The notes under the pieces were generated by a model. It searched no databases. It saw only the letters and a program-made list of their open reading frames with translations, and was not told the DNA's origin. 64,000 bases of DNA from a virus: positions 64,001 through 128,000 of IMG/VR virus record IMGVR_UViG_3300016471_001035, one strand, 5' to 3'. Position numbers and translations under genes: made by a program. Positions 4,351 through 21,055 of the stretch are shown here, one piece after another; position 1 is the first letter of the stretch, and each line of letters opens with the position of its first letter.

Positions 4351-5807
4351 TTTCATTTACACTCGACGCCAAGAAAGGTATGGGGATTATTTCTGGTGAT
4401 ATGCTAGAAGATGTACGTGAATTTTTTTCAGTTAAAAATGAAGCTGCTTTTTTTATGCGTAAAAAATATGGCCGGTTTTTACCTCAGCGTACTTATGCAA
4501 TAACGCCTGCAGGTAAATTTGAGCCCGGGCTTTATTTTGAAATTAGAAAATACCTAACTAACAATCAATATGTAGGTAATGTTACTACCGATGAACAGCT
4601 ATTTAACACTATTAGCCCATCTAGAAAATGGACAGACAATCCTCAATTTTCTTCTGACATTATTTCTCTTTCATTACCCCTAAGAGATTATCAAGAGGAA
4701 ATAGTTAAGAAAGCTTTTAATATTGGTAGAGGTACAATTATATTAGCAACTGCAGGGGGCAAGACATTAACTGCTGCATCTCTTTTAACCAAGCTCTTTA
4801 TTTTGTTTGGTACTTCCTTCAAATGTCTTTACATAGTACCTGATCTAGGCCTTGTCGAGCAAACATCTAACGATTTTAAAACCTACAACGTACCTTTCTC
4901 AGTAGGCAAATGGACAGGTAATTCTCCACTAGATAGCGAGATTAAGAATGTTACAGTAGCTAATTTAGGAATTTTACAAAGTAAAAATACAGATTTAACT
5001 TGGATAGAAAATATAGATGCTCTTATTGTTGATGAGGTTCATAAAATTCGTAGAGGTAATGAAGTTAATAAAATTATTAAAAGAATTAAAACTCCAGTGC
5101 GATTTGGCTTTACTGGTACTATGCCAGAAAATCCTCTAGATCAGTGGAATATTATAGGTAAGATAGGGCCTATAATATATGAAAAAAACAGTTATGAATT
5201 AAGATTAGAAAATTTTGTAAGCAATGTACAAGTACAAATTATAAAAATATTATACAAAGAGGATCCCTTTAAAGATTCAATTATCTCTTCTTCTAATTTA
5301 TATAGAGAAGAACTTAGGTTTTTAATGCGTAATAGATTTAGAAATAATGTTATTGGAAAGCTTGGATGTAAATTATCAAACAATTCATTAATACTCGTCG
5401 ACTACATAGAGCATGGTGAAGCTCTTTATAAGACAATTAAAGAAATGTGCCCTGAAAAGCAATGTTATTTTATTAGAGGTGAAGTTGAAGTCACTGAAAG
5501 AGAAAAAATTAGAAAGTTAATGGAAGATCACCATGATGTTGTGGTGGTAGCGATTTCTAAAATATTTTCTACCGGTATTAACATTAAGAATTTACATTAT
5601 ATTATTTTTGCATGCGGTGGAAAAGCAAAAATTAAAATAGTACAATCAATAGGCAGAGGCCTTCGCTTGCATAAGGATAAAGATAAGCTTATAATATTCG
5701 ACATTGCAGATGACTTAAAATATAGTCTTTTGCATGCTGACAAAAGAATACTTTTATATGAAAAAGAAAAAATCAACTACACAATTAAAGAAGTCCAAGA
5801 AAATTAA
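4347..5807 (+). CDS. uvsW: UvsW SF2 DNA helicase
   Basis: LRDYQ, ATAGGKT, DEVH, GFTGT, STGINI, QSIGRGLR motifs. Confidence 0.92.
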   Translation: MISFTLDAKKGMGIISGDMLEDVREFFSVKNEAAFFMRKKYGRFLPQRTYAITPAGKFEPGLYFEIRKYLTNNQYVGNVTTDEQLFNTISPSRKWTDNPQFSSDIISLSLPLRDYQEEIVKKAFNIGRGTIILATAGGKTLTAASLLTKLFILFGTSFKCLYIVPDLGLVEQTSNDFKTYNVPFSVGKWTGNSPLDSEIKNVTVANLGILQSKNTDLTWIENIDALIVDEVHKIRRGNEVNKIIKRIKTPVRFGFTGTMPENPLDQWNIIGKIGPIIYEKNSYELRLENFVSNVQVQIIKILYKEDPFKDSIISSSNLYREELRFLMRNRFRNNVIGKLGCKLSNNSLILVDYIEHGEALYKTIKEMCPEKQCYFIRGEVEVTEREKIRKLMEDHHDVVVVAISKIFSTGINIKNLHYIIFACGGKAKIKIVQSIGRGLRLHKDKDKLIIFDIADDLKYSLLHADKRILLYEKEKINYTIKEVQEN

Positions 5808-16851: not shown

Positions 16852-17754
16852 TTAAGCAGTACTGTACTTGTCAAATTCGTCGAAGCTTCTTCCACCTTTA
16901 TAACCTAGCTCTCTTGCGATTGAAGTAGGCTCGTCTTCTTCAGGATATTCTTCTACCGTTTCCACTTCACCGGTACCTTCGCCTTCTTTTTTCTCAGATG
17001 AAGGTGAAAAACTATTTTTAAATTTTAATGAATCAATAAAGTCCTGTACCATTTCGCTGTCTTTAGCCATCTTTTCATCATAGGCGCGAATAATAGCCTC
17101 TTCTACTTCTTTTTTAAGCTCAGGTGAATTATAAATATCGCTACCACTAGATACAGTTATTTCATCAGGCAATTCATTAAAGATTGGCATCCATTCTTTA
17201 ATAAATCTAACATCGTTTTTTATAAAGGTATTTGTTGTAGAAGCTGGTGTTGCAGGTGATGTACCAGGTGCACCGGGAGCAACTACTTTCTTACCCTCTA
17301 CCCCAGAGGTAACAGCTTGCTTGACTTGTGCTGGGCTAGCTGCTGCACCACCTTCTACATCTACTCTTAAAACGTTTAACAAATTGTCAACTATTCTAGC
17401 AGTGTATCTAGCTTCAGTACCGCCGAGTTTAAGTTCGTTTTTAATTAAATTTTCTAAATCTGTTCTAAATTTCATCTTAGATCCCGGATAATAAAGCTTA
17501 TATTCTTTACCATCTATAGTATGAATTGCGGGTTTAAAGAGCTTTGTCTGTATTGCTTGAAGTAAACGATTTGCAATTTCTGCTTTTGTTTTACCTTCCT
17601 TTGCAGCTGTTTTACCAATACCATACCCCTTGCCAGGCGCTTTTTCAATATCACCGGTATATCCTAGCTCGTCAGCATATATAGGTGCTTCTTTTAAAAC
17701 CCTAGGTTTTTTAGTTAAATAAGCTTCGAAAATAAGCTTTGTATCTTTGTTCAT
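16852..17754 (-). CDS. hypothetical late (probable head/internal) protein
   Basis: 300 aa; MNKDTKLIFEAY leader; upstream late box. Confidence 0.55.
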   Translation of the reverse strand: MNKDTKLIFEAYLTKKPRVLKEAPIYADELGYTGDIEKAPGKGYGIGKTAAKEGKTKAEIANRLLQAIQTKLFKPAIHTIDGKEYKLYYPGSKMKFRTDLENLIKNELKLGGTEARYTARIVDNLLNVLRVDVEGGAAASPAQVKQAVTSGVEGKKVVAPGAPGTSPATPASTTNTFIKNDVRFIKEWMPIFNELPDEITVSSGSDIYNSPELKKEVEEAIIRAYDEKMAKDSEMVQDFIDSLKFKNSFSPSSEKKEGEGTGEVETVEEYPEEDEPTSIARELGYKGGRSFDEFDKYSTA

Positions 17755-17755
17755 C

Positions 17756-17795
17756 TTGAATTATTTATTCTTTATATTATAATAAATCAGGAGGT
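17756..17795 (+). promoter_or_regulatory. early promoter and Shine-Dalgarno of the GATase
   Basis: TTGAAT-N16-TATAAT-N6-GGAGGT-N7-ATT. Confidence 0.7.
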
Positions 17796-17802
17796 TATAG
17801 CT

Positions 17803-18486
17803 ATTTGCGGTATATTTGGTTCTAAAGACTTTACAACTTATGTAAAGCTTTATAAGAGCAACAAGAAACGTGGTACGTTTTCTTACGGTGGTCTACTGAT
17901 CGGCTCACATATTCACGCTGTTCTCAAGACACCAGGCACTGCCAACCTATCCAATAAGCTAGTTATAGAGTACGGTAAAAAGAGGAGAAACATTACAGAT
18001 TTTGATGTTTTTTTAGGACACACTCAAGCCCCTACATCTGAAAAAAGAACATTTTCACCAAATACATCTCATCCTTTTCAACATAAAGAATGGTTAATTG
18101 CACATAACGGGGTTTTAACAAACGATAAGGAATTAAAAAAGCTTATTAAAGATAAAAAATCTTATAACGTTGTAGATTCATCTGTTATTGCACCGCTTAT
18201 AGCTATGTTTGTTAAAGAGCTAGATGATGAGGTTGCAGGTGTTTGCAAAGCACTATCGCTACTTAAAGGTACGTTTGGCCTTTGGATATATAATCAAAAA
18301 ACTGGTAATATTTTTCTCGCACGATCCGGCAGTACAGTATTCGCAGATTTTCTATCAAACGACTTTTCTTCTTTAAAGGAAAGCGGGTTTGTCCCTCTTG
18401 ACGAAGGTACACTATACCTATTAACTAAGGAAGGGTTAACCTCCGTAGGCGTATTTAAGACTAACTCTCCGTTTTTTACACAATGA
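17803..18486 (+). CDS. class II (Ntn) glutamine amidotransferase, 227 aa, ATT start
   Basis: Frame open from ATT-TGC-GGT-ATA-TTT-GGT ([M]CGIFG) through GHTQAPTS, SHPF, IAHNGVL, VDSSVI, in frame with track ORF 18205; SD AGGAGGT at 17789-17795. Confidence 0.85.
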   Translation: MCGIFGSKDFTTYVKLYKSNKKRGTFSYGGLLIGSHIHAVLKTPGTANLSNKLVIEYGKKRRNITDFDVFLGHTQAPTSEKRTFSPNTSHPFQHKEWLIAHNGVLTNDKELKKLIKDKKSYNVVDSSVIAPLIAMFVKELDDEVAGVCKALSLLKGTFGLWIYNQKTGNIFLARSGSTVFADFLSNDFSSLKESGFVPLDEGTLYLLTKEGLTSVGVFKTNSPFFTQ

Positions 18487-19175
18487 AAACAGCATTTTAT
18501 TTTTGTACAAGAAATTCTAAAGCGCAAGATACTTTTGCATTTAAATCTCTTCAAAGAATTAAACTAGCTACTCTATGGGAGTTTACTATAATTTATAAGG
18601 AAAATAATAATGACGGATTAAGCTTAAATTATAATAGTGTTTTAGAAAAGCATGGTAAAGATTATGATAACATAGTTTTTATACACGATGATGTTTATAT
18701 TGACGATCTTGGAGTGGTAAATAAGCTAGAAAAAGCTCATAATGATTTTGATATTGTAGGTCTTGCTGGGGGGTTAAATCCTGAAATTAAAGCACCCGCC
18801 CTTTGGCATTTAATGTGTGGGGGGTTTAACAGCGGTAATTTGAGAGGAGCAGTAGCCCATAAATTTAATAATGATCAAATTTTTATGACCAATTTTGGCC
18901 CCACACCCGCTAGAGTTGCTATTTTAGATGGACTATTCCTAAGCGTTAAAACCGAATGTTTTTTAAAAAAGGAATTTAAATTTAATGAAAATTATAACTT
19001 CCATCATTATGATATTGCCACCTGTATTGATGCTAATAAAAACAAATTAAAGTTAGGGGTCGTCCCTATATGGGTAGTACATAATTCACCCGGTCTTCTT
19101 AATATCAACGATGCTACATTTAGCGCTAGTCAATCTATATTTTTAAGAGAGTATAGCAGTATTGATTCTGTATAA
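18483..19175 (+). CDS. GT-A fold (GT2-like) glycosyltransferase
   Basis: VFIHDDVYI, IVGLAG, LDGLFL, FHHYDI motifs; ATGA-coupled to the GATase. Confidence 0.75.
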   Translation: MKTAFYFCTRNSKAQDTFAFKSLQRIKLATLWEFTIIYKENNNDGLSLNYNSVLEKHGKDYDNIVFIHDDVYIDDLGVVNKLEKAHNDFDIVGLAGGLNPEIKAPALWHLMCGGFNSGNLRGAVAHKFNNDQIFMTNFGPTPARVAILDGLFLSVKTECFLKKEFKFNENYNFHHYDIATCIDANKNKLKLGVVPIWVVHNSPGLLNINDATFSASQSIFLREYSSIDSV

Positions 19176-19195: not shown

Positions 19196-20524
19196 ATGGT
19201 TAAATTAGATCTAGATTTTTTTGAGCTTATTATTGCTTATAAATCATTAACTGATGAAACCTATTTAGCTTCTGTTGTCGACCATATAAAGCCTATTTTC
19301 TTTAAAAATAAAGATATTAAAGTTATTTTTACAATAATAAGAGATTTTTATGAAAAAAGAAATGCATGTCCTACCTTAACAGAAATAAAATCGTATTTAA
19401 CTAACGATGAGCTTAAAAATTCATTTAAGAATGTTGTAACACAGTTTAATAATTTAGATAAAAATTTTAACACAGATGAATTATCTGCTAATACAGAAAC
19501 TTTTATAAAAGAAAAATCCGTATACCATACAATGATGGATGTAGTAGATGATATCAACAAAAATAGTGTCGACACTTCTAAAATTTTAGCTAAATTTGAA
19601 AAAGCTTGTAGTATATCTTTAACCACTGAAATAGGGTTAGATTTGTATGCTAATTTAGATAGAGTAATTGAAGACCTGCATTCTTCAGAAAAATATATTC
19701 CTTCTAAATGGAAATGGCTTGATGATAAAATAGGAGGTGGGTTTCTAGAATCTGGTAGAGCACTCTATTTGTTTGCAGGCGAAACAAATATTGGTAAAAG
19801 TATATTTTTAGGAAATGTAGCTATTAACATAGCTGAGCAAGGAAAGACTGTATTGCTTGTTTCTTTAGAAATGCCAGAAATAATTTATGCTAAAAGACTC
19901 GTTTCAAGTGTATCTAAAATACCATTAAGCCAATTAAAAATAGAGTCTGATTCTTTAAAAAATCAAATTAGCGAGTATTGTATTGAAAATCCAAACGCAA
20001 AAATTATTATAAAGGAGTTTCCTCCCGCAACAATTACGCCCAACCATTTAAAGGCTTTTATTAAAAAATTAATACAAAAAGGTATTAAGATAGATGCCAT
20101 AGTTTTGGATTACGTAAATCTATTACATTCGTCTATGGGTGATTCAAGCTATGAGCGTGTTAAGATTTGTACTGAACAATTAAGAGCTTTATCATATGGG
20201 TTTAATTGCCCTGTTATATCCGCTACTCAGTTAAACCGTGAGGGGTATGAAATAACTGACCCAGGTTTAAAGACAATATCAGAAAGTATAGGGTTGGCTA
20301 TGACAGGTGACGTTATTATGAGTATTTGGCAAGAAGATACAGATAAAGAACTTGGCATTATTAAAATGGGATTAATGAAAAACAGGTTTGGACCTAATTA
20401 CGGTCATTGTGCAATGAGGATAGATTATTCAACACTTACTATTACAGAAGACGAGCATATAAATGACACAGAAGCAAGCACTTCTTCAATTAGTACGTTG
20501 ACAAAATTAGCTATCGACAATTGA
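19196..20524 (+). CDS. gp41: DnaB-like replicative helicase gp41
   Basis: GETNIGKS, SLEM, IKEFP, LDYVNLL, SATQLNR, ISES, MKNRFG. Confidence 0.93.
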   Translation: MVKLDLDFFELIIAYKSLTDETYLASVVDHIKPIFFKNKDIKVIFTIIRDFYEKRNACPTLTEIKSYLTNDELKNSFKNVVTQFNNLDKNFNTDELSANTETFIKEKSVYHTMMDVVDDINKNSVDTSKILAKFEKACSISLTTEIGLDLYANLDRVIEDLHSSEKYIPSKWKWLDDKIGGGFLESGRALYLFAGETNIGKSIFLGNVAINIAEQGKTVLLVSLEMPEIIYAKRLVSSVSKIPLSQLKIESDSLKNQISEYCIENPNAKIIIKEFPPATITPNHLKAFIKKLIQKGIKIDAIVLDYVNLLHSSMGDSSYERVKICTEQLRALSYGFNCPVISATQLNREGYEITDPGLKTISESIGLAMTGDVIMSIWQEDTDKELGIIKMGLMKNRFGPNYGHCAMRIDYSTLTITEDEHINDTEASTSSISTLTKLAIDN

Positions 20525-20549: not shown

Positions 20550-20846
20550 TTGTTGAATGTGAAAGGTTACGATCCTTCTGAGCAATTAACAGATTATGAA
20601 CAAACTCATTTGTTTTTATCTTTCTGTTCGTTTGTAACACTCACTAATACAAAAAAATTAAATCTTGCTAATGTTTTTATTACCCTTCTTAAGAATAAAG
20701 AATTTAGAGAGATTTTTAAAATTTATTGTGATTTAAAAAATGATTTTTCAGCTGTAAAATTTTTCTTGCAATTTGATTCAAGCTTGTATAAAAGTAAATA
20801 TATAATGAAATTTTTAAACTCAAATAAAAAGGCGCTTTTCCTATGA
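20550..20846 (+). CDS. hypothetical protein
   Basis: About 98 aa; start uncertain (TTG 20550 or GTG 20559). Confidence 0.55.
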   Translation: MLNVKGYDPSEQLTDYEQTHLFLSFCSFVTLTNTKKLNLANVFITLLKNKEFREIFKIYCDLKNDFSAVKFFLQFDSSLYKSKYIMKFLNSNKKALFL

Positions 20847-21055
20847 GCAATATTGTTAATGCTTCTGTAACTTTAGATAAGAAGAAATGTACAGATAAAG
20901 TTTATTTTGATAAAGCCTACAAAAGGTTTGCAAGAGAATTTTTAAGGTCGGGTGTGTTAGAGGATTTAAGATTTAAAAGGTGTTATTATAAACCAAGCGT
21001 GTTGCGTAAGTTAAAAAAGCAAGTTGCAAGACAGAAGTGGAAGTTTTACAATTGA
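20843..21055 (+). CDS. rpsU: phage-encoded ribosomal protein bS21
   Basis: 70 aa, basic; FDKAYKRFAR...SGVLEDLRFKRCYYKPSVLRK matches the bS21 pattern (ALRRFKR..G...R.R..YEKPS..R). Confidence 0.8.
   Translation: MSNIVNASVTLDKKKCTDKVYFDKAYKRFAREFLRSGVLEDLRFKRCYYKPSVLRKLKKQVARQKWKFYN

Follow-up and report, generated by a model that had tools for sequence, protein, structure and literature searches.

A conserved phage glutaminase gene predicted to start at AUU behind a strong Shine-Dalgarno sequence, with predicted leaderless AUG starts in other orthologues

In Escherichia coli, AUU serves as a start codon only in infC, where it is the target of initiation factor 3 (IF3), and in pcnB (PMC5499595); for pcnB, the summary given in that source is that the AUU limits an enzyme that is harmful in excess (Binns and Masters 2002, cited in PMC5499595). 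A leaderless message can be initiated only at AUG, as described for E. coli and Caulobacter (PMC9031893), and an excess of IF3 counteracts such initiation (PMC9031893, PMC10491246). Here we describe a viral gene, at positions 17803-18486 (plus strand) of a 64,000-nucleotide (nt) stretch of DNA (the window), which encodes a stand-alone class-II glutamine-amidotransferase-type glutaminase domain and for which we predict an AUU start behind a strong Shine-Dalgarno (SD) sequence. The window covers bases 64001 to 128000 of a virus contig in IMG/VR (139.6 kb; 33.5% G+C; estimated 66% complete) from an uncultured lake or freshwater T4-like phage. The gp41-type helicase of this phage shares only 28% identity with its counterpart in any cultured phage. 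The GenBank phages in INPHARED gave no DNA match to the locus, and the protein matches among them were weak only (31%) and lay in unannotated Listeria phage contigs. We found that the orthologues of this gene have two main start designs: a strong SD followed by ATT, or an ATG that lacks an SD and is preceded at 5-9 nt by a -10 hexamer.

The reading frame is open from a stop at 17716 to the stop codon at 18484-18486, and its first ATG, GTG or TTG lies at 18205, 134 codons after an ATT at 17803-17805 (plus strand), with no Met before the Cys in the translation. The ATT is preceded by a T at 17802 and followed directly by TGC (17806-17808), the codon for the catalytic N-terminal Cys of the mature enzyme. 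Since the nucleophile of class-II amidotransferases is a free N-terminal Cys, the start should be either the codon before TGC or a codon farther upstream with later processing. A first-pass annotation of the window had argued that the gene must start at this ATT, with Cys directly after it, because no canonical start codon exists in frame back to 17716; its coordinates were all correct when compared with the list of open reading frames (ORFs) and the translation, including the 134 open codons before 18205. Upstream of the ATT lies an early sigma70-type promoter with the -35 hexamer TTGAAT (17756-17761), conserved in nearly all promoter-carrying relatives, a 16-nt spacer and the -10 hexamer TATAAT (17778-17783). 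The SD, AGGAGGT (17789-17795; core GGAGG at 17790-17794), is followed by an 8-nt spacer (17795-17802) to the ATT; all of these elements are on the plus strand. Transcription is predicted to start at the seventh nucleotide after the -10, G17790, which is the first G of GGAGG, and by this early-promoter rule the amidotransferase mRNA would begin at its SD.

The rule itself was calibrated inside the genome. At 48 sites where TTGnnn-N16/17-TAnnnT is followed by an ORF-opening ATG, the ATG stands exactly 6 nt after the -10 in 19 cases and at any other distance no more than 4 times, which places the A of the ATG at the usual position of transcription initiation. The earlier proposal that the SD forms the mRNA's 5' end, with +1 at 17790, agrees with this promoter geometry, as a prediction. 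In a crude set of 151 genes, the full early-promoter geometry was present upstream of the ATG in 15% (random ATGs: 1.3%), TAAATA was present 4-7 nt upstream in 20% (random ATGs: 1.0%), and GGAGG or AGGAG was present 4-10 nt upstream in 2%, that is 3 of the 151 (random ATGs: 0.9%). Judged from these motif frequencies, the phage is predicted to be largely leaderless and SD-free in its genes. The predicted leader of the window gene (+1 at 17790 to the ATT at 17803) is 13 nt long, and the gene would thus fall outside the leaderless class; it is the sole long ORF in the contig that combines a strong SD and a near-cognate start with the lack of a canonical start, and a genome-wide scan for further ATT or other near-cognate starts returned no second convincing case. 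In ATT-type relatives that have the early promoter, GGAGG begins 5-6 nt after the -10. We also considered RNA structure that would mask the SD or the AUU, and rejected it: folding 17790-17869 gave no significant structure (z = -1.46).

The product has the hallmarks of a class-II, or N-terminal nucleophile (Ntn), amidotransferase. The gene has 227 codons including the initiator, giving 226 residues from the Cys. Pfam searches matched GATase_6 (40.5 bits; cut-off 27) and GATase_7 (29.4 bits; cut-off 25), and an AlphaFold2 model (predicted local distance difference test, pLDDT, 91.4; predicted template-modelling score, pTM, 0.90) shows, with the Foldseek matches, the four-layer alpha-beta-beta-alpha fold of Ntn enzymes. 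The top Foldseek matches were the GlmS glutaminase domain (1xff/1jxa; probability 1.00; TM 0.72-0.74), followed by PurF. A profile alignment to 1xff places the HNG motif of the family on the HNG of GlmS, and the Asp of the family's VDS motif on the Asp of the GlmS TDT; neither the HNG, which supplies the oxyanion-hole Asn-Gly, nor the Asp, which binds the amino group of glutamine, varies within the family. Residues 71-78 form a further invariant motif, GHTQAPTS. HMMER alignments to PDB chains begin after this region. The Gln of the motif would presumably occupy the position at which GlmS and PurF carry the Arg that binds the glutamine carboxylate (Arg73); given this presumed Arg-to-Gln replacement, the substrate may be other than free glutamine. 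The polypeptide contains no acceptor (synthase or isomerase) domain (226 residues; homologues 225-232), and ESM Atlas returned only viral clusters labelled "GATase domain". Over the N-terminal 130 codons, the ratio of nonsynonymous to synonymous substitution rates (dN/dS) was 0.04-0.13 against eight relatives, with a proportion of synonymous differences (pS) of 0.62-0.88, near saturation. On this sequence evidence, 17803-18486 is a real, strongly conserved gene.

To compare start codons, we collected 106 distinct homologous phage loci from scans of viral and metagenome contigs. ATT was the start codon in 59 and ATG in 47, and GTG, TTG, CTG, ATA and ATC starts were absent from all 106. The ATT loci have GGAGG or AGGAG 5-11 nt upstream in 58 of the 59 cases (58/106 loci), the exception being locus L198, with no clear SD. 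Of the ATG loci, 42 lack an SD, have a -10-like hexamer 5-9 nt upstream and are predicted to be leaderless; four have another context, and in one AGGAG lies 11 nt upstream. In every recognised locus the codon after the start is TGY, a count that is partly by construction, as the filter for the 106 loci itself demanded TGY after the start. Counts of invariance and spacing were made on the first locus set, of 44 ATT loci: GGAGG lies 8-10 nt before the ATT in 44 of 44, and the ATT, the preceding T and the GGAGG are invariant in all of them, with adjacent third-codon positions varying among three bases; no initiation signal other than these three is conserved. Combinations of SD and ATT occur in at least four upstream contexts, namely a promoter of the kind found in the window, a promoter with other -10 variants, a block that contains a GGAGAGGAGGG stretch but no -10 next to it, and, in L235, an unrelated upstream region. 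The protein tree requires at least nine changes between ATG and ATT, six of them on well-supported branches. The orthologue alignment that the first-pass annotation had proposed as a check therefore came out in favour of a genuine, conserved SD and ATT, and the close relatives with ATG that would have pointed to an assembly error or a recent start loss did not appear: all 33 viral loci with at least 68% protein identity to the window have ATT.

These data bear directly on the objection that the T at 17805 is an assembly error, or the gene an ATG-less pseudogene, and that only the 93-residue ORF from the ATG at 18205 is real. Public gene callers do cut the close relatives down to 174-216 residues, or in one case over-extend to 248. 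Against this stand the ATT in 59 distinct loci from many metagenomes, the strong purifying selection upstream of 18205 and the complete Ntn fold predicted with high confidence. An independent unitig assembly of run X1 also agrees: a Logan contig of that run covers 17500-17834 at depth 12 with no difference, which is weak read support for the T at 17805, as X1 may be the source sample. The unitig assembly, the dN/dS values and the 59 ATT loci already refute the objection, to which we give practically no credence. The same tendency of gene callers is visible in a set of 5.8 billion proteins, in which the close relatives occur only as N-terminally truncated calls (159-216 residues) and one over-extended call (248 residues), and relatives with 52-60% identity are full-length and start with MC. 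Public gene calls of the ATT clade start at an internal GTG, ATG or TTG or far upstream, and about 45 protein clusters are wrong as a result. Locus L215 (Ga0114973_10043308) lacks two bases just after ATT TGC in comparison to its nearest relative, L208; the resulting frameshift is an assembly error or marks a dead copy.

Could translation begin elsewhere, with the Cys exposed afterwards? Ntn hydrolases can process themselves, and some PurF enzymes lose a propeptide. A start at an upstream near-cognate codon (ATA 17797) or at the out-of-frame TTG at 17805, followed by autoproteolysis of a propeptide to expose Cys1, would bring this locus into line with them, and L198 does have an in-frame ATG four codons upstream of its ATT. 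That ATG would add five N-terminal residues before the catalytic Cys, and L198 may be a transitional form or one that requires processing. Elsewhere the sequence leaves little room for such a propeptide: in L006 and L009 an in-frame stop three codons upstream leaves one non-start codon and the ATT, which is then the sole near-cognate candidate, and in many other relatives a stop lies 4-8 codons upstream (3-8 codons when L006 and L009 are counted), with no canonical start between it and the ATT. In the window, just 2 nt separate the ATA at 17797 from the SD, the out-of-frame TTG at 17805 begins an ORF of 6 codons, and the codons upstream of the ATT are not conserved in relatives. We therefore regard a start outside the ATT as very improbable.

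A further possibility is that the ATT is real and used, and has no regulatory meaning: a mildly deleterious ATT could have been fixed by AT-biased mutation, with a strong SD as compensation, leaving the two designs as neutral alternatives. The genome has 33.5% G+C, ATG to ATT is a GC-to-AT change, weak start codons can be rescued by a strong SD, and the design has switched repeatedly on the tree. Given that synonymous sites are saturated, however, neutral drift should yield a mixture of ATG, ATA, ATC, GTG and TTG behind the SD, and we found ATT in 58 of 58 loci with a well-spaced SD. In the only two ATG loci that carry an SD-like element, its spacing is wrong (11-13 nt); ATA, the likelier product of a G-to-A transition, was never seen; the T at -1 is invariant; and the one-step reversion to ATG is absent from the 59 loci. 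On balance, neutral fixation seems to us unlikely.

We favour, with moderate confidence, the view that the gene has a weak, strictly SD-dependent and IF3-discriminated start that replaces a leaderless AUG and also sets the output of the glycosyltransferase-like gene downstream (described below). In this mechanism the 30S subunit would be anchored by pairing between the SD and the anti-SD on a minimal leader of 13 nt with the SD at its very start, the initiator tRNA would read AUU as formylmethionine, and deformylase and methionine aminopeptidase would then expose Cys1. Initiation would be weak and absolutely SD-dependent because AUU belongs to the class of non-canonical codons rejected by IF3 (PMC5499595), and it would respond to the balance of IF3 and initiation factor 2 (IF2), as would a leaderless AUG. 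The SD with AUU would then take over the function that a leaderless AUG has in the orthologues, and the glutaminase, and by coupling its partner, would be held at a low, factor-sensitive level and in matched amounts. If both designs share a modest output and sensitivity to IF3 and IF2, this would account for three absences: a well-spaced SD never occurs with AUG, a leaderless start never occurs with AUU, and GTG and TTG, weaker codons that IF3 accepts, are never used. The weak, IF3-sensitive and anti-SD-dependent start proposed in the first-pass annotation would likewise fit the comparative pattern.

Several points weigh against this interpretation. A search for RNA evidence turned up no RNA run containing this stretch, and the transcription start, the AUU initiation and the N-terminus are thus predicted. 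The host may differ from E. coli in SD usage and in the behaviour of its IF3, and the low output is assumed from E. coli data; AUU can reach 40-75% of the output of AUG in some extracts (PMC5499595). The test on phylogenetically independent pairs is underpowered (SD with ATT: 4; opposite: 0; ties: 2; sign test p = 0.125). One upstream block is common to three protein clades, so that exchange of upstream regions among phages by recombination may inflate the number of independent switches. Finally, L198 (Ga0247844_1000534) combines a degraded SD block, in the region about 20 nt upstream of its gene, with the in-frame ATG four codons before its ATT.

In a stronger version, the SD and AUU together would be a purpose-built sensor, on the one phage message that needs both a free anti-SD and a permissive IF3 state, and would time or meter the module against the phage's own remodelling of translation in the host. 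Leaderless AUG and SD with AUU would then be interchangeable members of one IF3-discriminated class of starts, and possible inputs would be bS21 (a ribosomal protein, encoded by this phage as well), a G-rich, SD-like small RNA from elsewhere in the genome, or a changed ratio of IF3 to ribosomes after host shut-off. We consider such a sensor improbable. No PF00707 match that would indicate a phage IF3 was found in the phage contig. A phage-encoded initiator tRNA for AUU was also considered and rejected: the single tRNA(CAT) of the contig (G000:C1 10751-10825, outside the window) lacks the hallmarks of a bacterial initiator, since the first pair of its acceptor stem is formed and its anticodon stem is rich in A/U, and by its sequence is classed as an elongator Met tRNA or a lysidine-type Ile tRNA, not an initiator.

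Elsewhere on the contig, outside the window, a series of early promoters at G000:C1 4000-9600 carries AGGAGT or AGGAGG between TATAAT and the ATG; these SD-like hexamers precede the predicted +1 and would stay untranscribed. On the minus strand at G000:C1 ~5560-5610, a TTGACC-N16-TACAAT promoter is directed away from the early genes, and about 24 nt downstream of it is a G-rich stretch with two SD-like runs (AGGAGG...GGAGGA), RNA from which could pair with the anti-SD.

The amidotransferase gene is followed on the plus strand by a glycosyltransferase-like gene (18483-19175; Pfam Glyco_tranf_2_5), whose ATG overlaps the amidotransferase stop as ATGA (18483-18486). Of 80 loci, all 80 have a homologue of the glycosyltransferase-like gene downstream; 56 of 59 distinct junctions, in the ATT and the ATG forms alike, show the ATGA overlap. 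This overlap, shared by both kinds of phage, suggests obligatory translational coupling and a two-subunit enzyme. Because the second gene has neither an SD nor a promoter of its own, its translation probably depends on ribosomes that finish the first gene; such coupling would hold both products in step, as for a two-subunit enzyme, and would make the glycosyltransferase-like protein a candidate, as yet unproven, for the separate partner of the glutaminase. The amidotransferase is the first gene of a conserved early two-gene module in a widespread group of freshwater T4-like phages. Next on the plus strand is a gp41/DnaB-type replicative helicase (19196-20524), which has its own predicted leaderless early promoter (-10, N6, ATG) and is syntenic in 75 of 80 loci. 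PHROG searches of the glycosyltransferase, the divergent gene described next and two neighbours returned nothing.

The divergent gene (300 residues; 16852-17754, minus strand; ATG as the complement of 17752-17754) starts one base from the -35 hexamer, and 44 of 80 loci carry a homologue placed divergently in the same way; it had no match in Pfam or PHROG. The intergenic region, 17755-17802, is 48 bp long and includes, on the minus strand at 17762-17767, TAAATA (TATTTA on the plus strand), a T4-type late-promoter core that precedes the divergent gene's ATG by 7 nt. By their motifs, an early plus-strand promoter and a late minus-strand promoter overlap back to back in this region, and the promoter spacer, TATTTATTC, is almost invariant in relatives because the minus-strand TAAATA sits inside it.

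About 3 kb downstream, in the same gene block, the phage encodes its own ribosomal protein bS21 (20843-21055, plus strand; 70 residues; PF01165, 40.2 bits). The first-pass annotation had suggested that the amidotransferase gene could be switched off if this protein masks the anti-SD. Spelled out, the idea is that bS21, as it builds up, would mask the anti-SD and shut off the sole message that depends on it, and leaderless messages would continue, so that bS21 would act as a timer; the analogy is the autoregulation of rpsU in Flavobacterium. The genome is otherwise SD-poor, and in Bacteroidia bS21 sequesters the anti-SD, with a single strong-SD gene translated by bS21-free ribosomes (PMC9976891, PMC13000457). 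We searched the loci, with 7-kb flanks, using a profile built from phage bS21 proteins, and counted those with 4.5 kb or more of sequence downstream. In the window's ATT clade, 25 loci could be tested, and every one has bS21. Over all loci counted, a syntenic bS21 was present in 25 and absent from 4 of the ATT type, and present in 8 and absent from 14 of the ATG type, and whole-contig Pfam searches agree. The protein is present in one half of the gene tree and absent from the other, and both halves hold both start designs; the presence of bS21 goes with the phage lineage rather than with the start design. In one ATT-type contig of 79 kb, bS21 is missing altogether. The SD here matches the canonical SD complement only over AGGAGGT (6-7 nt), compared with the 13-bp extended helix of rpsU (PMC13000457), and E. 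coli bS21 supports SD/anti-SD pairing rather than blocking it (PMC10491246). The phage bS21 itself shows no affinity to any host lineage: a protein search for host inference returned only phage homologues, and a comparison with bS21 chains in the PDB gave no clear lineage signal. The early promoters (TTGACT/TATAAT) are of sigma70 type and differ from the Bacteroidia consensus. A Bacteroidia-type promoter motif (TAnnTTTG) over the start was tried as well; it did not fit the window, and fitted a few relatives by chance. SD with ATT in general is not explicable by bS21, and even for the window's own clade we think a bS21 switch has little likelihood.

If the reading of a weak SD-dependent AUU start is correct, this family would join infC and pcnB as the third class of bacterial-type genes with well-supported AUU initiation, with 59 independent natural sequences behind it rather than a single genome. 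Full-text literature searches with AUU or ATT start-codon terms found no phage gene with such a start. The family also offers a natural experiment in initiation, in which the same gene at the same operon position switches between leaderless AUG and SD with AUU and almost never uses any other combination. For annotation, the consequence is immediate: public gene calls in the ATT clade lose the catalytic Cys, and pipelines that forbid ATT miss the active site of the family.

Among the known systems, rpsU of Flavobacterium johnsoniae, an SD-blind organism, resembles the locus in being one strong-SD gene in an otherwise SD-free set, with a bS21 gene near (PMC9976891, PMC13000457). It differs in that the window SD is 6-7 nt rather than a 13-bp helix, the gene does not encode bS21, bS21 does not track SD with ATT, and the window phage's promoters are of sigma70 type. 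The protein resembles GlmS and PurF in its Ntn fold, in the Cys that comes straight after the initiator and in the HNG and Asp motifs, which align to GlmS, and is unlike them in being a stand-alone protein of 226 residues without a synthase or isomerase domain, from a family with GHTQAPT. Leaderless mRNAs, such as lambda cI from pRM, are matched by the orthologues and most phage genes, which have ATG at the predicted +1, and not by the window gene, with its predicted 13-nt leader, SD and spacer. E. coli pcnB, for poly(A) polymerase I, shares the AUU start with an SD, and is a single-species case, unlike the window gene, whose codon is kept in 59 divergent loci and co-varies with the type of leader. 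A further AUU gene with an SD is infC, the gene for IF3, where AUU stands behind a good SD and is conserved in many orthologues, one base from AUG (PMC5499595). The window gene is viral and does not encode IF3, which leaves no autoregulatory loop, and infC lacks the alternation with leaderless AUG seen in the orthologues described here. New here are the occurrence in a virus, how deeply the start is conserved, and the strictness with which SD and ATT alternate with a predicted leaderless AUG across the orthologues.

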